DNA from: Escherichia coli | GTDB lineage: Bacteria > Pseudomonadota > Gammaproteobacteria > Enterobacterales > Enterobacteriaceae | Assembly (NCBI RefSeq): GCF_044647545.1 | Contig: NZ_CP172818.1 | DNA: 64,000 nucleotides | Direction: 5' to 3' (one strand) | In this document: positions 1 to 60,504 of the stretch, one piece after another | Position numbering within the stretch: position 1 is the stretch's first letter | Layout: every line of letters starts with the position of its first letter | Position numbers and translations under genes: made by a program | The notes under the pieces: model-generated | The model's database searches: none | Told to the model about the DNA's origin: nothing | The model's input: the letters and a program-made list of their open reading frames with translations, nothing else

Positions 1-706
1 TGGGATCAACGGTAATCCGCGCATCCGGGAAGCGTTTCTTCAATGCACGAACAGTGTCGATTTCTTGCTCGCCAGGTAACACTCCGCCCTTAAGTTTGAA
101 ATCTTTAAAGCCATAGCGATCCTGTGAAGCTTCCGCCAGACGCACAACGGCTTCGCTGTTCATCGCTTTCTGATGCCGCAATTGATACCACTCATGGTTG
201 CCCGGAGTATTTTCCAGATAAGGAAGATCGGTTTTGGTCCGATCACCGATATAAAACAGATAACCGAGGACGGTAATAGCATCGCGTTGCTTGCCTGGCC
301 CTAACAGTTCGCAGACCGGAACATTCAGCGCCTGACCTAGCAGGTCAAGCAAGGCGGCTTCCAGCGCCGCCACGGCATTAACGCGCAATTCAAAAGTCCA
401 GGCACCTTTGCCGAAGGTATCAAAATCGGCTGCCTGATTACCTTTATGCACCTGCTGAACCACTTTATTCAGTCGTGCGATCTCCTGGCCCAACACCATC
501 GGAATAGCCTCGACCAGTGTTTGATAAATCACCTCTCCGCCCGGCGCTTCACCAATGCCGGTATGCCCGGCGTTATCGGTGAGTACCACAATATTGCGGG
601 TGAAATATGCGTTATGTGCACCACCAATATTAAGCAACATGCTGTCATGTCCGGCGACCGGAATGACTTTCATATCAGTAATAACAGGACTGGATTGTGT
701 CGTCAT
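1..706 (-). CDS. gudX: Glucarate dehydratase-related protein GudX, N-terminal part (gene continues beyond the left edge of the window)
   Basis: Reverse-strand translation gives enolase-superfamily sequence (e.g. [53 protein letters not shown]) and the start [23 protein letters not shown] at 704-706; sits immediately downstream of gudP as in K-12. Confidence 0.85.
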
Positions 707-707
707 C

Positions 708-2060
708 TTATTGCCCCGCGACAGGTTTCAGCTCAATACGCTTGATATCGCCCACCAGCACCAGGTAGCTGAGTACCGCGATTAAGGCATGAACACCAAC
801 ATAAATCAGCGCCCCATTAAAGGAGCCAGTCGTGCCAACGATATAACCAATTGCGATTGGCGTGACGATGCCAGAAATGTTACCGAACATGTTGAACAGG
901 CCACCGGAAAGACCGCTGATCTCTTTTGGCGCGGTATCTGCCATTACTGCCCAACCCAGCGCCCCGATGCCCTTACCGAAGAAGGCCAGCGCCATAAAGC
1001 CGATGATCATCCACTCAACGTTGACGTAGTTGCAGAACACCATCACCATCGACAGCAACATGCCCATTACGATCGGTGTTTTACGCGCAATGTTCAGCGA
1101 TCCCGTGCGGCGCATCAGCCAGTCGGAAATAATCCCACCCAGCACACCGCCGATAAAACCGCAAACCGCCGGAACGGAAGCCACAAAGCCCGCTTTCAGA
1201 ATCGACATCCCGCGTGCCTGCACCAGATAAACCGGGAACCAGGTAATAAAGAAGTAAGTCAGGGCGTTGATACAGTACTGACCGATATAAACGCCGATCA
1301 TCATCCGTGACCCGAGCAGCTGTTTGATCTGCCCCCACTTCACGCTGAACGGTACTTTAACTTTGGTGTTTTGCTGATCCATATTGATCAGCGCGCCACC
1401 CGCCGCGATGTACTCCAGCTCTTTCTGATTTACACCCGGATGTTGATTTGGCTCGTGGATGACTTTCAACCAGATAAAGCTGATGACAATGCCCAGACCG
1501 CCCATAAAGAAGAAGACGTGTGACCAGCCCACTTCATGCGTCAGCCAGCCCATAATCGGCGCGAAGATCACCGTTGCGAAGTATTGAGCGGAGTTAAAAA
1601 TCGACACCGCCGTTCCCCTTTCCTGCGCCGGAAACCAGGCCGCTACAATGCGACTGTTACCGGGGAAAGATGGCGCTTCAGCAAGCCCGACCAGGAAGCG
1701 CAGCGTAAACAGGGCAACGATAATGCCGAATCCACTAAAAATATCGACGAAGCCTTGCAGCAAGGTAAACATCGACCAGATAAAGATCGACCAGAAGTAG
1801 ACGCGTTTTGAACCAAAACGATCCAGCAACCAACCACCAGGGATCTGCCCGATAACATAAGCCCATGAGAAAGCAGAGAACACATAGCCCATTCCCACAG
1901 GATCAAGGCCGATATCTTTGGCCATTTCCGAACCGGCGATAGAGAGCGTAGCGCGGTCGCCGTAGTTGAAGGATGTGACGATAAACAACATCACCACTAT
2001 CCAGTAACGAGCATTCGTGCGTTTTTCCACACTGCTCGCAGCCTGACTTAAAGAACTCAT
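708..2060 (-). CDS. gudP: MFS glucarate/galactarate transporter
   Basis: 450-aa ORF with multi-span hydrophobic MFS-like sequence; length and sequence recognised as GudP; stop codon 1 nt from gudX start. Confidence 0.9.
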
Positions 2061-2494
2061 TGTTGCACTCCTGAAAATTCGCGTTAGCCACGCTCACTCT
2101 GGACTGCGACATCGCCAGGAAATCAGAGGTGACGTAGGGTGTTTTTTGCCGTTTTTATAGGTCGTTCGCCGAATGCGGCGCGTGTTTATATCTGGCAATA
2201 GCAGTATAAAAAGCGCGCCATAGCGGCTCACCGTGCAACAACACAACATTAATGCGTTCAATGAGGCCCGATTTTGGCATTAGCCCTGGACGGTGGAATC
2301 CACTTCACGGAAATGAAAACAAGAACAAGAAAGGAAGGGTTAAAACGAAGAAATAAAGAAGAGTATGAAATGGATCGCTTGACTCCAGGCAAACGCCAGT
2401 AAAAATCCGCACTATGAAGCAGTTTTTACTGGCATTTGCCTGAAAAGATTCGATTCAGCACTGCTAAAACGGCATTTACCGCTCGCTGAACATA

Positions 2495-2944
2495 TCAGGA
2501 CAACAGCGTGCCCCAATGTTCGACCCACGGATTTGATTCCGTTTCCGGTTCCGGGTTCTCACTGGCGTCAATCAACAGCATTTCTCCCACCCGCTGAGCG
2601 CTCTGTTCCTGCAACAAGGTATCGAACTGTTTGCCACCATTGCAGAAATTCACATAACTACTGTCGCCGAGCGCAATCACGCCATAACGCAGATTCGGCT
2701 GGAAGCCCAGGGTATCTTTAATTCCCTGAAAGAGCGGCACAATGCTATCAGGAAGGTCGCCCTGCCCGGTCGTGGACGTAACCACCAGAACATACTTATC
2801 CTGATAGGGCAGCCAGTCGCTTAATTCAGGATCTTCAAATACCGTTGCTTTGTGGCCCTGCGCGGTCAGAATTGCTTCCGCTTCTTCCGCCACTAACAGC
2901 GAATTTCCGTACATAGTGCCGACAAAAATACCAATTTCCGCCAT
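2495..2944 (-). CDS. yqcA: Flavodoxin-like protein YqcA
   Basis: 149-aa ORF, N-terminus [15 protein letters not shown] typical of flavodoxin fold; recognised as YqcA. Confidence 0.85.
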
Positions 2945-2961
2945 ACCGTTTTCTCCCTGGA

Positions 2962-3744
2962 TTAGGAACTTATCTCTCCATCCTGACCCGATGGCGCACT
3001 GAACTCAACCCTTTCATTTTCAGGAAGCAGACCCCGCCAGCCAAATTGTGATAACGCCTGCATCCAGGTGTCGTCCAGGCCCGCGTGAATAGTCAGCGGC
3101 TCGCCAGTAAAAGGATGCGTCAATGACAACTGACTGGCATGCAGCATTAACCGCTGAAGGCCAAAATGTTCAGCACCGCTGCGATTCTGGCGTAAATCAC
3201 CATGTTTGCTGTCGCCAATAATCGGGTGGCGCAAATGGGCAAGATGGCGACGGAGCTGGTGCTTACGTCCGGTTTTCGGCTCCAGTTCCACCAGGCCGTA
3301 GCGCGTGGTCGGGTAACGTCCGGTCGCTACCGGCATTTCTACGGTCGCCAGACCGCGATAATGCGTCACTGCTGGCTGCGGGCCTTTATCTTCGCGGGCA
3401 AATTTATCAGCGATTTTGTCCAGTTCTTCCACCAGTGGATAATCCAGCACCGCTTCTTCCATCAACCAGCCGCGCACAATCGCATGGTAACGTTTCTGGA
3501 TTTGGTGCTGTTCAAACTGTTGTGCCAGCAGCCGTCCGGCCTCGCTGGATAATCCCATCAACAACACACCAGAAGTGGGTCGGTCCAGACGATGAGCAGT
3601 AAACACATGCTGGCCTATCTGGTCACGCACGGTTTGCATGACCACTACTTTCTCGTCGCGATCCAGCCAGCTGCGGTGAACCAGCCAGCCGGAGGGTTTA
3701 TTTACCGCAACCAGCCATTCATCCTGATAGAGTATTTCCAGCAT
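2962..3744 (-). CDS. truC: tRNA pseudouridine(65) synthase
   Basis: 260-aa ORF with RluA-family motif [12 protein letters not shown]; recognised as TruC (YqcB). Confidence 0.9.
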
Positions 3745-25851: not shown

Positions 25852-25926
25852 AGCACCTCAGAATTAAAAAGGGCGAGGTTTCCCTCACCCTGTCGTATCC
25901 GTCAAAACGGTATACAGAATAACACA

Positions 25927-27219: not shown

Positions 27220-27232
27220 GCGCATCCACGGA

Positions 27233-27309
<77 letters not shown>

Positions 27310-27342
27310 ATTAAAATTTGATGAAGTAAAGCAGTACGGTGA

Positions 27343-27419
<77 letters not shown>

Positions 27420-27452
27420 ATCAAAATTTAATGAAGTAAAGTAGTACGGTGA

Positions 27453-27529
<77 letters not shown>

Positions 27530-30500
27530 ATTATCTGAATACCCAAGTTTTCACAATCGTTTTTTTTATTTAAATCTTTCCTGAATCACAAAGTTTTTTA
27601 TCTCCCTTCCTCGAATAATCAATTACACTAAATTATCCCTTTCTGTATACTCAATCCCCGATATCCTTGTAATGATATTTTCATTACATCTAAATTCCCA
27701 ACGTTCAACTAAACACATCCACCCCAAAACATTTCTTCTTCAATCACCTAATAAACCCCTCATCCACAACTCCCCCCATTGATGATCAACACATCCATCA
27801 TCACAAATATTTATACTAATAAATCTCCACTCAAAAAAACAAAAAACAATGATGAATCGACTCATAAAATATCTTCAATTATACAAATGAATCCACTTTT
27901 CACAACTAATCTTTTTTCAAAACTAAAACTCAACATCAAAACAATAACCTTCCCATTTTTCCAATATCGTACCAACACAATACGTTTACCTTTAACCCAC
28001 CATCACTCACCCATACCATTTTCATCCATGATACACCGATATTTTCATCCCGAAATAATCCAATGATAAATTCCCAACCATTTGAATTAATCCCAACCAT
28101 TATTACAATAATACTATTCCTCCACGAAATCAATATTTCTATCCCCTCCCGAATCTCGATATTATTTTCACACCAACACAATAACTTCCCCTATAACAAT
28201 CTTCCCAACCCAAATAATCTCTAATCATATTCTATTTAACAATCCCACATTATTCTTAATAATAAATTAAAATTATTCTCTCTACAACCCAAAACACTCT
28301 AAAACACTACCAAACATTTTTATACACACTCACTTCAAAAACCACCCCAAAAATACTTACTGTATTTATATTTTAAATTATGAATTTCTTTAACCATCAC
28401 CCCTGATGATAAACCGAAACACACATAAATTTTTTCAATTCAAATCAACCCACCCATCACCAACAACCAAACAACATCCACACATATCTAAACTAAATTA
28501 TCCCCTCACTTTACGATTTCAACAATAAATCACAACTTACCAACATATATACTAAAAAATCAAATAATTACCCATTTTTTTCAACACATTCCCAATTTCC
28601 CTCTCACACTTTTGAAATAAAATAACAACATCTCTTCCCACATCCAATCCTGTACCCTCCTACCTAACAAAAAACGAATCCTACTCAAAATCCGATTTTC
28701 CAATAAACCGACTTACCAACACCAATAAAAACAACTTTTCCCTACAAATTTATACTTTAATTAAAACGAATCAAAATATCAATAACTCTCTACTTAATTC
28801 TTACATAAAATTTTAATAATATATCTTATTCATTTTTATTCTCCCTGATTAATATTTTTAATTACACTCACAAACCGTAACCCCATATATAATTTTTCTC
28901 ACCCACCATTCAAGAATACCCTCCCCCTCCGTTCCATAACATCCCCCCATAACCATTTCCTTCATGAATTAACACTTAAAATTCATCAAAAGATAACCAA
29001 TACAAACAATCTACCAAAAAAACAACATCACTCCTACATCAATTCAATATTTTATTCAATACTAATTGAATTAACAATATTCTTTAATGATTTACATCCC
29101 AATCTAACAATAAACAATTATATTCATACTATGGATTTACAAAACTATACGATATCTTCTAACTTATGATTAAAATTACTCATTAAATCATAAGATCTTA
29201 TCAAATTAAATTCATATCATTATACTACTACTTTTTCTTTTTTTATTTTAACCGATGTAACTACTCATTAAAAACAAAATCACTATGATTTCATCTAACA
29301 TAACAAATTATCCTTAACCACATTTTATATTCTTCTTCCACCAACTTCCTCGTTATGAGATTACATAATAACACCATCTCTTTTATCTTAAACAAATCCC
29401 ATTATACTACCCCCCTCATTTTTTATAATCAAAACTTCAAATATTCCCTATTTTTTACATCAAAAACATTAAACATTAAAAACAAATATTATCACACGAT
29501 CAATAATCTATTCTTTTCAATAATACATCACATCTATATTATCCATTCATTTTATCTTTTATATTTTATAAACCATTTACTACCATTCAATATTCACATT
29601 CAAACAGTACCTAAAATCTTTCCAAGTTTTCTTAATCCCTACACACTTCTTATCAAATCCATATCTAAATAAAATGTAATACATCTTTTACACCAAATCT
29701 CCCCAAAATCCCATTTACAATATTTCCTTCAAACAGTATTAAAAACATCCATCACATATCCATTATTATCCATATCCACCAACATGACTTTATACCGATA
29801 ATATTTATATTTTATCAATTTAATATAATTCCCCACTCTTTTTATTCTCCTCAATCAACCCATATCGATTTTAAACTAAAGATACCAATTATCCAGATTT
29901 AATATTCTCTTTACCACAATCCTTAACATCTCTCTCTTCACTCTATTTATCAACGTATATCCCTATACTATCCTCATACTTCACTACAATACTCTTCACC
30001 ACTCATCAGTTAAATTTAAAATACAACAACACAAAGTAATAAATAAAAAATACCACTTCGACACACACCTATTCAACTTTCTTCCACCAAACCCAAACTA
30101 ATAAATTGAATCAACCCATAAATCCCATCTTCACCCCATAACAAACACGAATCCATTCATAAATCATAAACAAACACATACTACAAATAAAAAAAATCCA
30201 ACTCCTACCCCCAATAATGATTAACACCCCAAATAACAATCTTTATACTTTTCTTTTACATACATCGATACACCACCCACCACCAACATACTAATCATCA
30301 TTTCTTTCCATTTTCCCCCAAACCACAATACCATTCTCTACACCCATAAAATCATCCATAATACTCTCCCCCAATCACACCTAAACCGACGTAAACAAAA
30401 ATCACCAGATTTTAACCAAAAAACTCACTCCAACTCATAAAAAATAACCGAACAACCGAATATATCATCCAATGACATGAAAATTAAAAACCCAATAAAA

Positions 30501-31641
30501 GAATGATCAACCAAACCATCATCACAATCATTAATAACACAACCTATAAAAACTAATATCTAACTAAATTAACGTCTTTTTAACACCATAATAACCCACA
30601 ACAATTCCTCTAAACCTTATTTAACTGATCCCAAATATTTATCGACATTTACACACCAATAATCTCTTTTAAATAAAATTCTCCCAGACACCCATAAAAC
30701 AATAAAGAAAAACATATTTATCCTCTTTTTTTTAATAACCAAGAATTTACCAAACAAACATAATAACAAACAAACAAACCAAAACAATAAACAATATTTT
30801 TATTATGAAACCAAAATAATTAATCCATATCATCATCTAAACATCCACCTACATCACACATACAACAACAAGAAATAAACCTCATCTAAAAAAAATCCAC
30901 TTTCTTTTATTTCATATAAATTTATATATAAAATTAATACTACGAATAAAATATATTTTCTCTAAATACATATTTAAAACAACAATACTCAATTTATGAA
31001 TTAAAATTCTTTCTCAAAAATCATAATCACAATATTCTTTTTTTTATACATAAAACAAAAAAAATAATCATCATAACTTAAATTAAATAATCTCACTTAT
31101 AAAACCGATAACTTTATTTTTTAATAATAAAAAGCATAACAATGAATTCAATTATTTAAAACAAATAAAATTCATCAAATTAAACTAAATTATAATAACA
31201 CAATATTTACAATTTATCAAAAAAAATTATTATTTTACCAAAAAATAAAACAAAAAACAAAAATTTAATTTTTCAAATACACAAACAACAACAAAACAAC
31301 AAATACATAATAATATAACGGGTGTTTTTTTGTTTCTTGTCTCCCATAAAAGAGCCAGCCATCTCAGACGACATTCCATATTTTTTTTTAACCACCCACC
31401 CAGAAATATAACCTCTCCATTCACACTTACACAATTATTTCATACTTATATCAATACTCCCAAAAAAAACAACACTCAAATAATAATACTCAAACAATAA
31501 CATACAAAATAACAACAAACAAACGAATTTTTAATTAAAAACTTTATTTTCAACGACATTCAAAATCCACATCATCACAAAACATCTAATATTCATAAAT
31601 TTATCTATCAACGAAATATAAATTCATAATAAATAAAAACA
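27530..31641. other. About 4.1-kb non-native, apparently non-coding block with extreme G-depletion on the + strand (A/C/T-rich, AT-rich); origin and function unknown
   Basis: By eye, most 60-nt lines contain 0-3 G. No ORF longer than about 105 codons in any frame, and those present translate to low-complexity peptides. No obvious long direct or inverted repeats, no integrase, no duplication of the tRNA 3' end. Fills the whole gap between metV and the amiC stop, where K-12 has only tens of bp (from memory). Confidence 0.85.
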
Positions 31642-34539: not shown

Positions 34540-36366
34540 TTATTCCCGCGAACTAAACAACGCCGCCAGACCACTGCGCCGCTCGGTGCGCGTGGCAATT
34601 GCCGCACTTAAAATGCGCTCATCGGCATACAGCGACAGACGGCGACGCGCGCGGGTCACTGCGGTGTAAACCAGCTCTCGCGTTACTACCGGCGTGCGTT
34701 GACTCGGTAAAATCAACGCCGCATGGTCGAACTCCGATCCCTGCGATTTATGTACCGTCATCGCCCACGTCGTTTCGTGCTCTGGCAGGCGACTCGGTTG
34801 CACAGACTTAATATTGCCGTCCGGCATCGCAAACCAGACGCGCGTCCCCTGCCCACGATCCAGCGCAATACCGATATCGCCATTAAACAACCCAAGCGCG
34901 CTGTCATTACGGGCAATCATCACCGGTCGGCCTTCGTACCAACGAGAGTGCGGATGACGATGAATTTTGCGCTTCTGTTGCATAAACTGCTCAATTCGCT
35001 CATTCAGTCCAGCCACGCCAAACGGCCCTTCCCGCAGGGCGCACAAAAGCTGGTACTCATTGAACGCCTGAATGATTAAATCCGGCTCGGCACGCGCTTG
35101 CAGCAGATCCAGATAACGTCCGTAACCCGCAAGAGCTTCCTCAAGCATCGCAATATAATCTTCGCCGCTCTGTAAAAGCCGTTTTTCGATATCAGAAAAA
35201 TCCTGCTGAAAAACGGTTTTCACTGCCGTTTTATCACCACGGTTGATCGCCGCAGCTAACTGACCAATGCCAGAATCGCTGCCGAAACGATAGCTTTTTT
35301 GCAACAGGCAGAGACTGTCGCGCAAAGATGCCGCTTCTGTGCCAGTTCCTGCCGGAACGTGAGTTCCCGTCAGGCGGCTTAGCTGCCCGGCACGCTCGGC
35401 GGTAAAGCCGGCATTGGCATAAGCACAAATATCGCCCAGCACAGCCCCAGCCTCAACCGAGGCCAGTTGATCACGATCGCCGAGAAAGATCACTCGCGCA
35501 TGATCGGGCAAGGCGTCTATCAGTCTCGACATCATCGGCAGATCGATCATTGACGCTTCATCTACCACCAGCACATCAAGATGCAGCGGGTTACCGGCAT
35601 GATGGCGTAAACGCTGGCTACCTGGCTGCGCGCCCAGCAATCGGTGCAAAGTACTGGCATCTTCCGGAATGCGTTTCTTTTGTTCATCGGTCAGCGGTAA
35701 CTGGCGCAAAGCCTTGCCGAGAGATTCGGTTAAGCGCGCGGCAGCTTTACCCGTTGGTGCAGCCAGACGGATACGGCAGCGTTCGCCGTCGGCCATTTGA
35801 ATTAACGCTGCCAGCAACTTCGCTACGGTGGTCGTTTTACCGGTGCCAGGGCCGCCGGAAATCACTGAGATCCGCCGCGTCAGCGCCACTGCCGCCGCAA
35901 CTTTTTGCCAGTTAATTTCATCGCTTACTGGAAAAAGTTTGTCCAGGGTTTGCGCCAGTAGTGCTTCATCAACCTCAATGGCATGATTCACTTCGTTGAA
36001 AAAGCGTGCCACTGTGCGCTCGTTACACCACATGCGATTCAAATAAAGACGATCGCCACAGAGGATCATCGGCGTTGGTTCATCTCCCCGGCTGACCGCT
36101 TGTGAAGCCAGCAAGCATTCTTCCCAATTTTGTAGCTCACCGATTTCACTGACACAGGTCGCCAACAGCGGATGCGATGCCTCGTTATTTTCCAGTCGTG
36201 AAAGCGGCAAACAAACGTGTCCCTCTCCGGCATCATGACTTAACAGTGCCGCCGCGAGGGTGACGGCAGGATGTTCATCTCCCGCCACGGTCAGGGCAAA
36301 CTGCACGTCCAGCGGGCGTAGCTGTTTGTGCTCCACAGCTTCCAGTAATTGCTTTTGCAATTTCAT
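34540..36366 (-). CDS. recD: Exodeoxyribonuclease V alpha subunit
   Basis: 608-aa ORF with Walker A motif [10 protein letters not shown]; the start codon overlaps the recB stop (TAATG). Confidence 0.92.
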
Positions 36367-39300
36367 TACGCCTCCTCCAGGGTCATACCGGCAAACATCT
36401 CATCCATCAGGTCAATCAACCCGGCGTTGGGTCGGGTCGCGTAGATCCCTTGTTGCGGATGTTCTTTATCAACGCCACGCAGGAACAGATAAATAACGCC
36501 GCCAAAGTGGCGCTCATAGTCGTAATCAGCAATGCGATGGCGCAGATAACGGTGCAGCGCCAGGGTATAAAGCTGATATTGCAGATCATAGCGGTGCGCC
36601 TGCATTGCCGCTGCCATAGCCTGTTGGGTGTAAGCCGAACTGTCTTCACCCAGCCAGTTGGATTTATAGTCGAGCAGGTAATAACGCCCTTCGTGGCGGA
36701 ACACCAGGTCGATAAAGCCTTTTAACATGCCACGTACCTGCATGAACTCCAGCGGCGGGCAGCCAGCGGATAGCGGGTCAAACTGGCGAATTAGTGCATC
36801 AAGCTGACTGGCGATAAGCGGTTCACTAATCGGCAGGTAAAACTCCATCTCCACCTGTTTATCGCGATCGGAAAGCTGATTCAGGCTAACACCCGTTTCA
36901 TTGAGAGGTGCCTGGAGGACAGCCGTGATCCACTCAGTCAACACCGGTTCCCACTGCGGTTCAAAGCCGCCGAGCTCCAGTTTTTCCTGTACCCAGTTCG
37001 GGTCAACCGGCTGGGTAAAATCGAGGTCTTCAAACAAACTGTGCAAGAATGTCCCCGGTGACGCACCGCGCGGGAACTGATGCGGTGTTAACGTCGGTTC
37101 TTCAACGACGCTGACCACGCCTGCGGCATCAACATCCAACCGTGGCATCAGATCCTGAGCGATACCGTGACCACGCTGCTGCAAACCGGAGTAGCTGGTG
37201 ACACGCCAGTTATCGCCGGGCAATCGTTGTAGCGTCCTCGCATTCAGTTCTGCAGTTAATGCATCATTAACCTGCCAGGGCTGGTTATCACCAGTTTGTG
37301 CCGTTTGCCAGGCAATATCATCATCGCATAACGCTTCAATACAGGTGCGAAGCCCTGCCGCATCTTGCGGTTCCCCTTTTTGCAGCAAACGCCCGAGCGC
37401 ACTTTGGTGGACGTCGGTATCACCTTTTTTATCGCCACGACGGCGCACCAGCGGTGCAACGCCGAGACTGCAATGCCAAACCGAACGCGTCAGCGCCACG
37501 TAAAGCAAACGCAGATCTTCCGCCAGACGTTCGGCCTCCGCGAGGTCGACGCTTTCTGGCGCAGCATTAAGATCCAGAACAGCCTCAAACGAGTGGCGAT
37601 CGTGATAAAACGCCTGATCCTGGACGCGGAAATTGGTGATAAACGGCAGCCAGACCAATGGATATTCCAGCCCTTTCGATTTGTGGATCGTGACAATCTG
37701 CACGAGATGTTTATCACTTTCGAGACGCATTTGTTGGCTGGAGGCATTACTGTCTGGCTCGAGGATATGTTGCGATAACCAGCGTACCAGCGCATGTTCA
37801 CTTTCCAGCTGCGTGCCGGCTTCTTGTAGCAATTCGCTGATATGCAAGATATCGGTAAGACGCCGCTCACCGCCTGCTGTTGCCAGCAAGTTTTCTGCAA
37901 TGTTACGCGCCGACATCAGCGCCCGCAGCATCGGCATAACGCCACGTTTGCGCCAGATTTGCCGATAACCATCGAACTCTTCGACTACCGCATCCCACGC
38001 ATGTTCGTCATTATTCAGCGTTTCAATATCCAGCGCATTCAGCCCCATCATTGACGTTGCCAGCGCACTGCGCAGGGTGTTCTCACGTTCGGGTGTCATC
38101 ACCGCCTGCAACAGCCAAAGCATCTCCTGTGCTTCCAGAGTTTCAAAAACACTGTCGCGGTTCGAAAGGTAAACGGAAGGGATTTCCAGCAGCGTTAAGG
38201 CATCGCGCACCTGAGCGGCCTCCTGGCGGCTGCGCACCAGCACACTGATGTCCGAAGCACGCACCGGACGCGCGTCGTCGCCGTTCATCAGCAACGCTTC
38301 GCCCCGCTGTCCGGCTTGTAGCCAGTCGCGGATTTGCGCAGCACATACCTGCGCCATGGTACTTTGATAGTCGCCAACGCCGCAGCTTTCGCCTTCCATC
38401 AGCCACATTTTCATCGCAGGCTGCGTTTCACCTTTAAACACAAAACGTAACGCCTGATTTTTCCCGGCTGATTTCACTGGAATAAAAGGAATTTCGCGAA
38501 ACATGAACGCGTCATCAGTCTGACTGAAAAGTTTGTTAACGCTGTTCACCATTCCCGGTGCGGAACGCCAGTTGGTGTCTAAGGTGTAGTGGGCGTGAAC
38601 TTCGCTACGCGCCTTCATATAAGTGAAGATATCCGCACCCCGGAATGCATAAATGGCCTGTTTCGGGTCGCCAATCAGCAACAATGCGGTTTCCGGCTGA
38701 TGGTGCCAGATACGGCGAAAAATTCGGTACTGCTGGGGGTCGGTATCCTGAAATTCATCGATCATTGCCACCGGGAATCGCGTACGGATCGCCGCTGCCA
38801 ATACCTCGCCGCTTTCACTACGCAGCGCGGAATCGAGCCGACTTAACATGTCATCAAAACCCAATTCGCCACGGCGGCGTTTTTCACGCGCTACTGTTTC
38901 GCGGATCTCAGCTAATGCGCGAGTGATCACCAGATCGCGGATCGACAATGGTTCTGCAAGCAGTTGATCGATCGCCTCAAACAGTGGATGTCGCGGGGTT
39001 TCCCCCCGGCTTTCGTGCGATCTTCTAAGAAACGCTGAGAGAATTTTTCCAGCGACTCTGGCAACTGATAGCTGTTGGTCTCTTCTTCTGCCCAGGCGCT
39101 GATCTTGTCGATCCATTTAGCCTGATTGCTACGGTTAAACTTGCGTCGATCAATACCAGAAGATTCGATCAGCGCATCCAGTTCACCCACCGCGTCGCGC
39201 CACTGCTGTTTTACCGTATCAATACGCGCCACAATTTGCGCGTGGCGGGAAGCCAGCGTTTCATCATCGGGCGGCGGCGCTTTGATAACCGGCGCTTCGC

Positions 39301-39907
39301 CTTGCAGATAACGATTAATATCGCGCAGTAACGCCTGCGGCCCTTTCCAGGTTTCAAAGACGACCTGGGCAATTTCACGCGGCAGCGGGTAGCAGTGGCG
39401 ACGCCAGAAATCGGCGCAGGCCTGGTAACGTAGCAGAGACTCATCTTCAATCAGCTGCTGCTCAAACAGCATGCCGGATTCAAAGGCATTCAGGTTGAGC
39501 ATGCGCTGGCAAAAACCGTGAATAGTAAAGACTGCCGCTTCATCCATCTGCCGTTCGGCTAACAACAACCACTGCGCGGCTTGCGCTTTATCGTCGATCT
39601 CTTCCAGCAGGCGTTTGTACAGTGGATTGTCGGTGGTTTCACGCAGACAGGCGATGCGCAACTCGTGGATATTGCTACGGATACGACCGCGCAATTCTGC
39701 CGTGGCAGCCTCGGTAAAGGTGACCACCAGCAGTTCTTCAACGGTCAGCGGGCGGGGAAAGGCGGCAGAACCGCCTAGTCCAAGTAACAGGCGCAAATAG
39801 AGCGCCGCAATCGTAAAGGTTTTGCCTGTGCCGGCAGAGGCTTCAATCAGGCGCTCGCCCTGTAAGGGCAAGCGCAAAGGATCTAGTGTCTCGGCGACAT
39901 CACTCAT
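36366..39907 (-). pseudogene. recB: Exodeoxyribonuclease V beta subunit RecB, disrupted by a -1 frameshift (or a homopolymer sequencing error)
   Basis: Two overlapping same-strand ORFs, 38927-39916 (329 aa, RecB N-terminus with Walker A ASAGTGKTFT) and 36366-39116 (916 aa, rest of RecB). The frames switch at a run of 6 C at 39000-39005 (+ strand); 7 would give ...RTKAGGETPRHPLFEAIDQLL... in one frame. Total span is 3542 bp against 3543 bp expected for 1180 aa plus stop. Confidence 0.85.
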
Positions 39908-42788
39908 TCTTTTCACTCATCAGGGGCATTGTTTGCTGCAACGCGCTGACGTTCTCCCACACTTTCCAGCCTTCAGGATGCACATATTCGGCTTTCCCGT
40001 TCTGGCTGCCGGAAATCTGCGACAGAATAGCCATACCTTGCGGCTCGACCACCGCCTGATGGAAGAAATCAGCAAGTTTTTGCGGCGTCAGCAGTTTTAT
40101 CTGGGCCACGATTTTATCACGCGAATCGAAGCGCATATTGCCGCGATCGAAATCTTTACTTAACTTCGATGCTTCTTCGCCGAGCGTTTGCGGTGCCTGC
40201 AGCATCTGGGTAATTACCGCCTGCTGGATTTGCGCAAACTCTTCTGGCTTCATCGCCCGCAGTTTCGCTTCTGCGGTCGGGAAAAACGCCTTGTAACGCT
40301 CCCACAAGAATGAAGGCTGTTTATCATTGCTTTGCAACAGGAAGCCCATGCCCCACTGACGCCCCACGCTCATTGGAAACGCAAACACGGCATAGCCCAA
40401 CTGTTCTTCGGTACGCAACTGATTGTAGAACCACGGCTGTACGATCTGCCCCAACAGAGAACTATACGCTGAACTGGTGTATTCATCGTAGCCAGTCGGT
40501 ACAAATACCGCTGCCAGTGCGGAGTCGGTGCTGTTACCGGCTTTTTCAAAGATGACGGATTGTTTTTTATCGACCACGACATCTTTGTTACGACACCACT
40601 CCGAACCATCAGCGCCCAACTGTTTTTGCACATCGCGTGCCAGCGTTGTTGCCTGGGCCTCGGTCATGTTGCCGATAACCATAAACTCTGGTCGAGCCCC
40701 TGATTTTAAGGCGTCGCGATAGGCCAGAACTTCTTTCAAAGTAATGGAGGGCAAAATTTTGCGCCGTTCATCTCGCGAGAAGTATGGTACTTGCGAGAGC
40801 ATCTGCGCGGGCATAATCGCCTGCTCGAACGCTTTGCCCTTTTCTGCAGAATCCATCATCTGGTTATACCAGGACTTCGCCTGCTCAAGCTGATCTTCCG
40901 TAGCGGTATAGCTAAAGTACCCCTCGAGCAATGCCTGGAACAGCTGCGGCAGGCGCTGGGTGTAACCATTGGCATTAACCATAAGGCCGTTGTTAGCATT
41001 GGTGGAAAAACTTATGCCACCAACCGACGCCTGGTTGCTTAACTGATCAAGCGCCAGCCCTGCGAGATAATCATTGAGCGCAAACATCACCTGATTGCGG
41101 GCGCTATCCATGGCTTTTGGATTACGCAAAATCAGGCTGACATCAGCTTTGGGTTCGCTGGAAAAATAACGGCTTGGCGCATACACCACACGCAGATTCG
41201 ACTCATCAACAATCAGCTCTGGATGGTCATATTTCTTCTCTGACTTAATCAGCGAGAAATCGTCAGGAATATAGGGGTTAAGCTCTGGCAAAGAGAGCGC
41301 AATGTCGGCGGCTTTTTTCTGCCAGTCAGCGAAAGTTTGTGCGCTAATTTTATCGACCTGATACGGCGCATCGACAAAGTAAGCCGTTTTGTTGTGCGGC
41401 TCTTTCGGGCTGATATACCAGATACGCGCATTCTGCGGCGTCATCATCGCCAGGCGTTCTTTTACTGCTTTAGCGTCGTACCGATCGGCAATATTGACTG
41501 CATCCAGCGTATGCTCAACAGGAACGCGAATCATGGTATCTGCCAGCCATTCGACGTAATCCATATCACGGGTGATTGACGGATAACGGAAGTCGATATC
41601 CAGCACATTCGCCAGTTCATCGAAGTATTGTTTATCAATCCCTTTTTCGCGTAACAGATTGAGGTAGCTAAAAATGGCCGCCACAACCTGATCGCGATTC
41701 GCCAGACCTTTATCGGTTAAAGACGCAGAGATCGCTAATACGCCGCTGTTGCCGTTGACGATAGGATCGGAATTGGCGCTAATACCCTCAACTAATCCCT
41801 GCTTTTGCAGCCAGTCAGAAAGTGTACCTGGGCTGCGATTACCAATCAGATAGGTAATCAATTCATCCGTTTTACTACGGAACTTCGCTGAATTGTTATC
41901 GATGCGAAACTCAACGCGCAGAACTTTACGCGGCAACGCCGGGACGTAATGAATGATAATGCCCTTTTGCGCGTCGGTGACTACCGGCACGGTGATTTCC
42001 GGTTTTTTGCTCTCTTTGTTCGGCACGCGACCAAAGGTGTCCGCCGCCATTTTCGCCAACTCCGGCAACGGTTTATTGCTGTAAATAACCGCCTTCATCA
42101 GATTGGCGGAATAGTACTTCTCGTGGAAATCTTTCAGCGCCTGCTGTACCGGATTACCTGGTTTGTCGCTTAAAGTTTCGAGGTTACCACCAGAAAACTT
42201 TGAACCGGGGTGTGCCGGGTTAATGGTTTCTGCGCTGACCTGTGCCATGCGCATCCCGTCACGCGTACGCGCCATGGTTAATTCGGCATTCACTGCATTA
42301 CGTTCACGTTCGGCGTATTTCTTGTCGAGCAAGGGTTCTGCAATAGCATCGGCCAGGCGGTCTACCGCACCGGGTAAGGCATCGTTCTCAACTTCCAGAT
42401 AGAAAGCCGTGCGATACGGTGCCGTGCTGGCATTGTGACTGCCACCGTGCATTTTGAGATATTCGGCCAGACTGTCAGCCTGCGGGTACTTTTTCGACCC
42501 CATCAGACTCATGTGTTCAAGGTAATGCGCCAGCCCCTGATACGCCTCGGGATCTTCCAGCGACCCAACGGGCACCACCAGCGCCGAGAGCGATTTAACC
42601 GCCTGCGGATCAGAAACCAGCAAGACCACCATACCGTTATCCAGACGTATAGCCTGATACTGGCGGTTATCTTTATCACTTTTACGGATGGTTTCCTGAA
42701 TCGGCTGCCATCCCGTTTCTGCCTGACTTAAGGGTGCCCAAAGGGCAACAAACAACAATAATGCTTTGAACCAGATGCTGCGGGGCAT
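39900..42788 (-). CDS. ptrA: Protease III (pitrilysin), periplasmic M16 zinc metalloprotease
   Basis: 962-aa ORF with signal peptide and inverted zinc-binding motif HYLEH; recognised as PtrA; 3' end overlaps the recB start by 8 nt. Confidence 0.92.
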   Translation of the reverse strand: MPRSIWFKALLLFVALWAPLSQAETGWQPIQETIRKSDKDNRQYQAIRLDNGMVVLLVSDPQAVKSLSALVVPVGSLEDPEAYQGLAHYLEHMSLMGSKKYPQADSLAEYLKMHGGSHNASTAPYRTAFYLEVENDALPGAVDRLADAIAEPLLDKKYAERERNAVNAELTMARTRDGMRMAQVSAETINPAHPGSKFSGGNLETLSDKPGNPVQQALKDFHEKYYSANLMKAVIYSNKPLPELAKMAADTFGRVPNKESKKPEITVPVVTDAQKGIIIHYVPALPRKVLRVEFRIDNNSAKFRSKTDELITYLIGNRSPGTLSDWLQKQGLVEGISANSDPIVNGNSGVLAISASLTDKGLANRDQVVAAIFSYLNLLREKGIDKQYFDELANVLDIDFRYPSITRDMDYVEWLADTMIRVPVEHTLDAVNIADRYDAKAVKERLAMMTPQNARIWYISPKEPHNKTAYFVDAPYQVDKISAQTFADWQKKAADIALSLPELNPYIPDDFSLIKSEKKYDHPELIVDESNLRVVYAPSRYFSSEPKADVSLILRNPKAMDSARNQVMFALNDYLAGLALDQLSNQASVGGISFSTNANNGLMVNANGYTQRLPQLFQALLEGYFSYTATEDQLEQAKSWYNQMMDSAEKGKAFEQAIMPAQMLSQVPYFSRDERRKILPSITLKEVLAYRDALKSGARPEFMVIGNMTEAQATTLARDVQKQLGADGSEWCRNKDVVVDKKQSVIFEKAGNSTDSALAAVFVPTGYDEYTSSAYSSLLGQIVQPWFYNQLRTEEQLGYAVFAFPMSVGRQWGMGFLLQSNDKQPSFLWERYKAFFPTAEAKLRAMKPEEFAQIQQAVITQMLQAPQTLGEEASKLSKDFDRGNMRFDSRDKIVAQIKLLTPQKLADFFHQAVVEPQGMAILSQISGSQNGKAEYVHPEGWKVWENVSALQQTMPLMSEKNE

Positions 42789-42963: not shown

Positions 42964-45900
42964 TCATGACTGATTAAAGCGAAACAGCGGTAACAGGAAA
43001 CGTTGCGACTGTTCAACGATGGCCTCCATTGTCTCTGGTGTTAATTGCCGCCAGAGCCGTTGATACCAGATATCATCACCTTCGCCACGCACCATCATGT
43101 TGCCTTCGTAAGCCTGAAGGAATTTCGTTCGGGCTTTTTGCAACGTGGAATCGTCATCCAGCATGGCATCGTTTTGCGCGTCATAACAGGTTTTTAGCCA
43201 CGCGCCGCCACTTTCAGGTAACACCAGCAATGGCGCGGACATTCCTTCACGATACCCCTCAATCAGTTGTGAGAGGTAATGCAAAGCCTGTTCGGCTGCA
43301 AGCGGCGGAAAACGCCACTCGCCGTCTTTGCGTAGAAAAAGGCGACTTTCACCATTACCACCGCTGGCACAGTAGACAAGGTGTTCCAGCCAAAGTTGCA
43401 TTCCCTGCGCCACACTTAATAAAGAGGGACGCCAGCGCAACAGGCCATCCGGCTGCACCTGCGGCAACCAGCCAGTTATCTGCACACCGTTGCAGGCGAG
43501 ATCAATCTCCATACTCTGCCCTGGCTGGCGACAGGCAATGACTCTGTCGGCAAGTTGCTGCATCTCCTGACACTGCGTTTCCCAGAAAATTTCACCAAAG
43601 GCACCATACGGCAAATCACCTGCCGCCCGGAATCGGCGGAACAAGCGTTCGGCATCATCCTGCTCAACCAGTGCATTTAATAACTGCTGGTTGATTTGAT
43701 AACGACTAAGCCCTTCAAGAATAAAAGGTTCGGTGTCGGGAATTTCGCTGTCTTCGGTACGGAAGTTCACCTGCAAACGCATCTGGAAAAACGCCCGCAC
43801 CGGATGCGCCCAGAATCGTTGTAGCGTCTCCAGCGGCACAGTTTCCGGCAAGGTAAACGGCAGCGGCTGAACAAATTCAGAATGTGCTTTACCAGCCTGG
43901 CTGGCCGCAGGTAGCCACTCGCGCGCATAGCTTTGTCGTTCGCCTGGCTGGTAGTTTTGTGGATCAAACGGCATTCGGGTATGGAGGCAAGTAAGATGCG
44001 CTTTTACCCTTGCCTCGCTTTCATCACAGTTGAGCGCTTCATCTCCCGGTAGATAATGGCTTTGCCCGATGTAGTCGATCAGTTCCTGCACCAGTACCGA
44101 CGGGAAACGTTCACTGTTATCCTGAATGGAACGCCCGATATAGCTGATATAGAGTTTTTGCTGCGCGGAAATTAACGCTTCCAGGAACAGATAGCGGTCG
44201 TCATCGCGACGGCTACGGTCGCCACGCTTCGGTTTCTGGCTCATCAGGTCAAAGCCCAATGGCGCAAGCTGGCGTGGATAAACGCCATCGTTCATTCCCA
44301 GCAGGCAAACCACTTTGAATGGGATGGAACGCATTGGCATCAGAGTACAAATGTTAACCGGTCCGGCGAGAAAACGCTGGCTGATACGTTCCTGATCCAG
44401 GCGCTGTGCCAGTTCATCACGCAATAGTGACAGCGGCACCGCGTCGCCATACTGCGCACCTAAACCTTCGGCGATAATCGCCTGCCATTGTTGTTCGATC
44501 AGCGTCATCGCCGCTTCGGTTTCCGCATCCGGCAGGAAGAAGGCGTTGAGCATATCGCGACAAACCGGCAACCACTCTTCCAGCGGACGCTCCTGCGCCA
44601 GCCCGCGACGCCAGATGTTTAGCTGCATTAGCAGTGAAGCCAGATGCCCCACCAGTTCTGCAATTAAGCCGCTCGATTCATCATAAGGTAGAACCGATTG
44701 CCACTCGCCCTGCGCGCTCTCCATCGCGTAGCCCAGCAACATGCGCGTCAGGCCAAACCGCCAGGTGTGTTGACCGGTAGCGGGGAGTTCCAGCTCGCGA
44801 ACGTTGTCGTCATCTATCCCCCAACGAATTCCGGACTCGTTGACCCACTGGCGTAAATAACGCAGCCCTTCTTCGGTGATGTCAAACCGCGCCGCCAGCA
44901 CCGGCACATCCAGTAATGCCAGAACGTCCTCCGACACAAAGCGGCTGTCTGGCAACGATAACAGGCTGATAAACGCTTCAAGTACAGGATGCGACTGCCG
45001 CGCCCGACGGTCGGAAATGGCGTAAGGTAGGTAACGATCCGCAGGTGCGCTACCAAACACAGCCTGAATAAACGGACTGTAGCTGTCGATGTCGGCCACC
45101 ATCACAATGATGTCGCGCGGAGTAAGTGTCGGATCTTCTTCCAACATCGCCAGCAGGCGATCGTGTAAAACTTCAACTTCACGCTGTGGGCTATGGCAAA
45201 CGTGGAAGGTGATACTGCTATCCAGTGGATCAAGCGGGCGTTTGTTATCGCTACGGGAAAACTCTTCGATGTTCACACCCGCAACGGCGCGGTTTTCCAG
45301 TTCCAGAATGTCAGACTGAATGTTATGCAGCAGGTTATCTGGCGTCACATCGACAAAAGCGTCCAGCTCCTGGCTGCTCTCCAGATCAGAAAGGAGATAA
45401 ATGTAGTCGCGTCCAAGCTTGCCCCATGAGGCCAGCAGCGGGTTGCCGACATCCTGTTCACCATCGCTGTTAAAGAGCTGCCCGGCATTTTCGCTGTCGC
45501 GAAATAGCGGTAATTCGCGATCTTCAAAACTGTGTCGGCGCTGGCGAGTCAGCAGTTTCGCCAGATAAGCAGGATCTTTAATGTCGCCCCAGTAATAACG
45601 GCAGGGGTTGGTAAACAGGAGATGGATTTCAATATGTTTACCCAGCGCCTGTAGCGCCTGGAGATAAACAGGCGGTAACGCGGAAATACCGCATATAAAG
45701 ACGCGCGAAGGTAGCCCCGGCGGGCAGGTCGTCGCGGACTCCAGCGTTTCGATAAAGCGCTGATAGAGATTGGCGCGGTGCCAGCGCGGTTGCCCGAGTT
45801 GATGGGTATATTCCACCAACGCCTTCCACAACGGCGCTTGCCAGGCCTGTGCTTCTCCCAGCCCTTCAACCAAATGTCCTGTTTCCCACTGTGCCAGCCA

Positions 45901-46332
45901 GTCCGGACGATAGACCAGATACTGGTCAAACAGGTCCGCCGCTTTTGAAGAAAGCTGGAACAGTTTTCGCTTGTCGCTATCGTCAGTCAGATAATGCCGC
46001 AACAGGGTAAAGTCTTCGCGATCCAGCAATTGCGGCAACAGAGTCATCAGTTTCCAGCTCATGCTCTGTTTGTTAAAGGCGCTCTCTTTGGGGATCTCCG
46101 ATAACACCCGGACGAACATATCCCAGATAAAGCTCGCAGGCAGCGGAAAATCAATGTTTGCCGCAATACCAAACTTTTGCGACAGGGTCATTTGCAGCCA
46201 CTGCGCCATACCGGTACTTTGCACCAGAATCATCTCTGGTTCGAAAGGATCGTCCAGCCGTTCGCGTTCGACAATAAACTCCATCAACGCTTCCAGCACG
46301 TCCAGACGATTGGAATGGTAGACCCTTAACAT
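42964..46332 (-). CDS. recC: Exodeoxyribonuclease V gamma subunit
   Basis: 1122-aa ORF recognised as RecC. Confidence 0.92.
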   Translation of the reverse strand: MLRVYHSNRLDVLEALMEFIVERERLDDPFEPEMILVQSTGMAQWLQMTLSQKFGIAANIDFPLPASFIWDMFVRVLSEIPKESAFNKQSMSWKLMTLLPQLLDREDFTLLRHYLTDDSDKRKLFQLSSKAADLFDQYLVYRPDWLAQWETGHLVEGLGEAQAWQAPLWKALVEYTHQLGQPRWHRANLYQRFIETLESATTCPPGLPSRVFICGISALPPVYLQALQALGKHIEIHLLFTNPCRYYWGDIKDPAYLAKLLTRQRRHSFEDRELPLFRDSENAGQLFNSDGEQDVGNPLLASWGKLGRDYIYLLSDLESSQELDAFVDVTPDNLLHNIQSDILELENRAVAGVNIEEFSRSDNKRPLDPLDSSITFHVCHSPQREVEVLHDRLLAMLEEDPTLTPRDIIVMVADIDSYSPFIQAVFGSAPADRYLPYAISDRRARQSHPVLEAFISLLSLPDSRFVSEDVLALLDVPVLAARFDITEEGLRYLRQWVNESGIRWGIDDDNVRELELPATGQHTWRFGLTRMLLGYAMESAQGEWQSVLPYDESSGLIAELVGHLASLLMQLNIWRRGLAQERPLEEWLPVCRDMLNAFFLPDAETEAAMTLIEQQWQAIIAEGLGAQYGDAVPLSLLRDELAQRLDQERISQRFLAGPVNICTLMPMRSIPFKVVCLLGMNDGVYPRQLAPLGFDLMSQKPKRGDRSRRDDDRYLFLEALISAQQKLYISYIGRSIQDNSERFPSVLVQELIDYIGQSHYLPGDEALNCDESEARVKAHLTCLHTRMPFDPQNYQPGERQSYAREWLPAASQAGKAHSEFVQPLPFTLPETVPLETLQRFWAHPVRAFFQMRLQVNFRTEDSEIPDTEPFILEGLSRYQINQQLLNALVEQDDAERLFRRFRAAGDLPYGAFGEIFWETQCQEMQQLADRVIACRQPGQSMEIDLACNGVQITGWLPQVQPDGLLRWRPSLLSVAQGMQLWLEHLVYCASGGNGESRLFLRKDGEWRFPPLAAEQALHYLSQLIEGYREGMSAPLLVLPESGGAWLKTCYDAQNDAMLDDDSTLQKARTKFLQAYEGNMMVRGEGDDIWYQRLWRQLTPETMEAIVEQSQRFLLPLFRFNQS

Positions 46333-60291: not shown

Positions 60292-60504
60292 ATCACCACT
60301 TTAGCAACCTGAAGCCAAACGCCACCAGCAGTCAATCGCAACAGCGTTTCGCAAAGTGTAACCAAAGGTTTGCAATCTCTTTTTTTGTCTTACTTATTTG
60401 CGTTTGGCTCACATTCCCACGATGAAAGCATGCCCCCCCTTGAACCAACGGGCGTTTTCCGTAACACTGAAAGAATGTAAGCGTTTACCCACTAAGGTAT
60501 TTTC

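Follow-up and report, generated by a model that had tools for sequence, protein, structure and literature searches.

A one-base deletion in a G run divides recB in an Escherichia coli genome record and is probably a sequencing or assembly artefact

Introduction

In the E. coli record analysed here (one stretch of 64,000 nucleotides, hereafter the window), recB is divided between two reading frames by the absence of a single G from a homopolymer, and the question that this locus raises is whether the strain has lost RecB or the record has lost a base. A real frameshift would be notable, since it would leave a natural isolate of a pandemic extraintestinal lineage devoid of its main nuclease for double-strand-break repair and anti-phage defence. 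A sequence-only reading of this DNA had left the choice between a true recB defect and a homopolymer-length error; this choice was apt, and the evidence assembled below favours the second of the two. On the strength of sequence comparisons, we assign a probability of roughly 0.84 to the reading that the missing G is a sequencing or assembly artefact and that the strain would carry an intact recB.

The recB lesion

The homopolymer is a run of six C on the plus strand at 39002-39007, i.e., G6 in the sense of recB (the sequence-only reading had recognised this run and placed it two bases away, at 39000-39005). In the normal allele the run is G7 and makes up the codons of Gly301 and Gly302 and the first base of Glu303. 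As found in the window, recB occupies 36366-39907 on the minus strand and measures 3,542 nt, where the complete gene has 3,543. Its N-terminal frame (38927-39907, minus strand; 326 codons and TGA) reads ...FSQRFLEDRTKAGG to Gly302, ending in RTKAGG, and is correct RecB up to there (residues 1-302); after Gly302 the same frame gives KPRDIHCLRRSINCLQNHCRSAIW (24 out-of-frame residues) and terminates at the TGA at 38929-38927. The continuation of RecB, (E)TPRHPLFEAIDQLLAEPLS..., lies in the adjacent frame (36366-38999, minus strand; T304 to A1180 and the stop) and proceeds to the normal stop at 36366. The earlier description of a genuine RecB N-terminus that runs out of frame to a stop ending at 38927, with the continuation in the adjacent frame, was therefore correct, except for the length of 916 aa that it gave to the continuation: this is the length of the mechanical ORF at 36366-39116, the first 38 residues of which are read out of frame upstream of the lesion and are not RecB, and the RecB part of which amounts to 877-878 residues (T304-A1180).

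Insertion of one C after 39007 yields a single ORF of 1180 aa without an internal stop, as had been anticipated for one extra G, and this restored protein matches the RecB of E. coli IMT16316 at every residue (exodeoxyribonuclease V beta subunit, WP_001571833.1). Apart from the missing base, no nucleotide differs from the IMT16316 allele over the 3.5 kb of the gene; a second lesion or an excess of substitutions was looked for in recB and not found. Comparison with intact orthologues confirms that a homopolymer of recB has lost one G and that the gene is thereby split, and because this comparison is direct, chance is not at issue for the lesion. The change is thus of 1 nt in a long homopolymer of a gene that is otherwise identical to intact alleles, and since recB is otherwise undamaged and the restored protein equals the reference, an artefact is favoured. 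The run has a normal length of G7, and no other coding G/C run of the window reaches seven.

The identity of the divided gene was established by profile searches, in which both pieces of recB were matched by the NCBIfam families NF008128 and TIGR00609 (equivalog cut-offs of 1697 and 696 bits, respectively). The C-terminal ORF scored 1743 bits (NF008128) and 1196 bits (TIGR00609) and exceeded both cut-offs; the N-terminal fragment scored 592 and 340 bits over profile positions 2-315 and, taken alone, stayed under both. Jointly, the two pieces span the RecB profile from end to end, as expected of a full-length member of the family. In the restored protein, the Pfam domains UvrD-helicase (15-436), UvrD_C (441-808) and PDDEXK_1 (950-1155) were identified, i.e., the RecB architecture of an SF1 UvrD-like helicase followed by a C-terminal PD-(D/E)XK nuclease.

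The gene order of the window is the canonical recC - ptrA - recB - recD, all on the minus strand, and the three neighbours of recB are intact: recC (42964-46332, 1122 aa), ptrA encoding pitrilysin (39900-42788, 962 aa; 8-nt overlap with the recB start at 39907) and recD (34540-36366, 608 aa; overlapping with the recB stop at its start). IMT16316 shares the ptrA-recB-recD operon, the upstream recC and the Pfam architecture of RecB; the window departs from it in the change from G7 to G6, which breaks the ORF after Gly302.

The Walker A motif GTGKT (26-30) sits in the N-terminal frame, and helicase motif II DEFQD (384-388) sits in the C-terminal frame together with the other helicase motifs and the PD-(D/E)XK nuclease domain; no single uninterrupted ORF of the window contains both Walker A and motif II. 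If the lesion were true, the product would consist of 302 residues of RecB and 24 junk residues, with Walker A cut off from motif II, from the remainder of the helicase and from the nuclease domain, and it is predicted that no functional RecB would be made. The same outcome, absence of functional RecB, characterises null alleles of the recB21 type (the classical recB21 is an IS186 insertion); these differ from the present case in the type of lesion and in being laboratory alleles with measured phenotypes, whereas the lesion in the window is known from sequence only.

Full-length RecB might still be made from the divided gene if ribosomal -1 frameshifting or transcriptional slippage occurred on the G run. 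Very little RecB is needed per cell, and G runs permit low-level slippage; however, about 99% of the orthologues are single ORFs, so that there is no conserved recoding site, the sequence GCC GGG GGG AAA does not contain a canonical X XXY YYZ heptamer, and transcriptional slippage needs longer runs, typically of 9 or more A/T. We give such a rescue next to no weight. Two further candidates were considered and rejected: a programmed frameshift site (the split is not conserved and the slippery heptamer is missing), and long-term decay into a pseudogene (there is a single lesion only, and the restored protein is that of the reference).

Comparison of the window with E. coli IMT16316

The nearest complete genome is that of E. 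coli IMT16316 (NZ_CP023815.1), with many other genomes scoring equally over a 25-kb query; IMT16316 is a strain used in studies of the ST131 and ST648 lineages (PMC4794485). The window falls into two kinds of sequence relative to this genome: a corrupted stretch of 4.1 kb at 27531-31628, and the remaining about 59.9 kb (1-27530 and 31629-64000). In the latter we found no substitution and exactly two differences, both of them 1-nt deletions, at 25881 and 39008. The first (25880-25881, plus strand) is the missing A of GGTT[A]TCCC in the intergenic region mltA-tcdA, about 30 nt upstream of tcdA and outside any homopolymer; the second is the recB lesion. Among the approximately 5,400 complete RefSeq E. 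coli genomes, neither deletion was found on the haplotype of the window.

The corrupted stretch (plus strand) is a copy of a five-gene PTS/MalY/SIS/PGDH island from which about 1,484 bases are missing. The intact island of IMT16316 comprises 5,551 bases between three tRNA-Met genes and amiC and encodes a PRD regulator, a PTS EIIC, MalY/PatB, an SIS isomerase and a phosphoglycerate dehydrogenase; all five genes are destroyed in the window. Relative to IMT16316, the bases lost are 891 G, 321 T, 230 C and 42 A, and substitutions occur at 30 positions at most, which leaves 113 G in 4,098 nt and a GC skew of about -0.8. The loss of G is uniform across the stretch (83-93%); the loss of C and T climbs from about 0.1 to 0.4-0.55 toward its 3' end. 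The losses depend on the neighbouring bases, and the borders of the stretch are sharp. We know of no natural process that deletes individual G residues in this manner, and its appearance is that of a poor read of one strand, or of corrupted data, set between clean sequence, and not that of biology. The stretch is far worse than ordinary residual long-read error and needs a separate explanation. As it is dominated by deletions, the record must hold uncorrected sequence, and the source record of the window should be used with care.

The three tandem tRNA-Met genes (27231-27531, about 110 nt each in the IMT16316 annotation) show 3 SNPs between copies, and the corrupted stretch starts exactly where the third copy ends. 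The start at this repeat boundary suggests a join or a patch.

The differences between the window record and IMT16316 are essentially all deletions: the record contains further indel errors (the deletion at 25881 and the 4.1-kb stretch) and few substitutions. Because all other differences are deletions as well, with no substitution in about 59.9 kb, an artefact is favoured also for the missing G of recB. The rival explanation is a real, very recent -1 frameshift, which would make the isolate or the sequenced culture RecBCD-deficient. The about 59.9 kb of flanking sequence, error-free except for one other deletion, would fit a well-polished assembly with a genuine G6, and recB null mutants are viable. 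In mutation-accumulation studies, substitutions outnumber indels about tenfold, and two private 1-nt deletions without any substitution in this length of sequence are unlike spontaneous mutation. A real frameshift also has to be reconciled with the gross corruption that the same record shows 7 kb away, with the strong fitness cost of recB loss and with the fact that no secondary decay was seen in recB, recC or recD in the window. We regard a true defect as unlikely, and the distribution of the G6 allele, described below, bears on it further.

The G6 allele in complete E. coli genomes

A 71-nt query centred on the G run was searched in 5,408 complete RefSeq genomes of E. coli. Perfect matches to the G6 form were obtained in about 42 of them (about 0.8%), and the remainder had one G more: the run is G7 in K-12 MG1655 and in about 99% of the complete genomes. 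G8 was found in none of the complete genomes searched, compared to about 42 with G6. In all nine G6 genomes that were inspected, PGAP calls recB "frameshifted", and recC, ptrA and recD are intact. Examples of such RefSeq entries are C25 (NZ_CP127314.1), 447 (NZ_CP183089.1) and 05-3629 (NZ_CP027373.1), which, like the window, have G6 in an otherwise intact recB; the same lesion in an otherwise intact gene is present in 2012C-4227 (NZ_CP013029.1) and CFSAN004176 (NZ_CP014583.1). These RefSeq genomes differ from the window in their haplotypes, which are 100-230 SNPs per 8 kb away; the haplotype of the window combined with G6 is absent in complete genomes and present in assemblies of public sequencing runs.

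When the ptrA-recB-recD region was aligned over 8 kb, G6 was seen on at least seven haplotypes, 100-230 SNPs apart, with four haplotypes among five genomes of a Taiwanese accession series and three among three genomes of a Russian series; the lesion therefore arose many times independently. Its occurrence follows the accession batches: eight tight accession batches (including CP1830xx-CP1831xx from Taiwan, CP1272xx-CP1273xx from Perm, CP1465xx and the CDC STEC series CP0273xx) hold 32 of the 42 G6 genomes. There are about 76 same-batch pairs of G6 genomes, compared to about 3 expected, by a rough estimate, for random scatter. The sequencing platform was read for two of the about 42 G6 assemblies, and both are PacBio-only: 2012C-4227 (PMC4683243) and CFSAN004176 (PMC5567499) were assembled from PacBio RSII data with HGAP3 and without short-read polishing. 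The lesion thus recurs independently and clusters by accession batch, with the platform known for two assemblies. The recurrence of the identical lesion in unrelated assemblies by batch favours an artefact; the one-way bias toward G6 (42 to 0 relative to G8) fits undercalling of the run. Both the clustering by batch across unrelated lineages and the absence of G8 argue against a real frameshift in the window.

Recurrence by itself carries less weight than its pattern, since G7 tracts are natural hot spots of replication slippage and independent recurrence alone is no proof of error; to this extent the tract speaks for the reality of the frameshift. It could even be thought that the G7 run is a phase-variable contingency site, at which RecBCD would be reversibly switched off in some cells or isolates, e.g., with altered handling of phage or foreign linear DNA. 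The run is kept in nearly all of the about 5,400 genomes, although synonymous codons could interrupt it, and G6 recurs on many haplotypes. However, this recurrence tracks sequencing batches and not ecology, the length polymorphism is not two-way (no G8, about 42 G6), and the documented G6 cases are PacBio-only (PMC4683243, PMC5567499). A literature search for homopolymer frameshifts or phase variation in recB returned no relevant report. We consider a contingency site very improbable. Only slightly better, and still very doubtful, is the related proposal that the G7 at recB codons 301-303 is a hypermutable switch and that about 1% of isolates, including the present one with its IMT16316-like haplotype, are truly and perhaps reversibly RecBCD-off; if it held, phage defence, the uptake of linear DNA and quinolone tolerance would be affected.

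The truncated product in public sequencing runs

The exact 326-aa truncated RecB is encoded on at least 23 contigs from public sequencing runs (25 contigs are on record overall, one of them an NCBI contig of 4.5 Mb), and the 90% cluster of this fragment has 562 member sequences. Exact-protein searches gave no record of the 916-aa ORF or of a 105-aa ORF from the corrupted stretch. Three of the contigs (L012, L017 and L019, from runs DRR393831, SRR18681712 and SRR30896103) belong to the same lineage (ST648-like). Their differences from IMT16316 are almost exclusively 1-nt deletions in homopolymers (T8, T7, A6, G7, A5, T4, T9, A7 and G4), recB is broken into 3-4 pieces, and ptrA or argA is split too. 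Such a pattern clearly bears the mark of error-prone runs entering public assemblies, and because these G6 contigs of the same lineage show 1-nt homopolymer deletions, an artefact is favoured for the window as well. Others of the contigs with the 326-aa fragment come from different lineages and from the same run series. On some of the public-run contigs (L013-L016 and L018), the G6 is accompanied by no other coding frameshift nearby; such otherwise clean contigs are a point in favour of a genuine frameshift, and a minority of the public G6 calls could reflect real alleles.

A homopolymer undercall as the probable cause

Under the preferred reading, an artefact of sequencing or assembly, the G7 of recB would have been undercalled as G6 in long-read-type sequencing or in the consensus; as an alternative technical route, the base may have dropped out when the record was handled later. 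An intact recB and a working RecBCD are predicted for the strain. From the anatomy of the lesion, the deletion-only pattern of the record and the recurrence by batch, we infer that a technical cause is most likely in this particular record.

The errors that remain in long-read assemblies are mostly indels in homopolymers, and the deletions among them result from conservative estimates of length (PMC12007338). The window resembles the homopolymer errors that long-read (PacBio CLR, ONT) or flow-based sequencing produces in that a 1-nt deletion affects a G/C run of seven or more, recurs by batch and has other deletions beside it, and it is unlike the typical case in that, of the remaining long homopolymers in the window, most are correct (outside the corrupted stretch, the T8, T9, A8 and A9 runs agree with the reference). 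The other G/C run of seven, C7 at 60433-60439 in the intergenic region galR-aas, was found as C6 in none of the genomes of this haplotype. This C7 occurs in IMT16316 and in the complete genomes that share its flank and is absent in three other lineages examined; because it is lineage-specific, it provides no useful control for undercalling.

The frameshift is present in the record and is probably not a property of the organism. More generally, the G7 tract of recB likely gives rise repeatedly to false recB pseudogenes in databases, at a rate of about 0.8% of complete RefSeq E. coli genomes. From calls of a "frameshifted recB", no RecBCD deficiency should be inferred without confirmation by accurate reads, and the about 42 RefSeq assemblies with G6, likely a systematic annotation artefact, merit flagging to curators. 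In one of them, strain 447, a second gene near recB is also called "frameshifted" (it encodes a VasL-domain protein); its indels, left out of the evidence here, lie outside homopolymers and may be natural variation.
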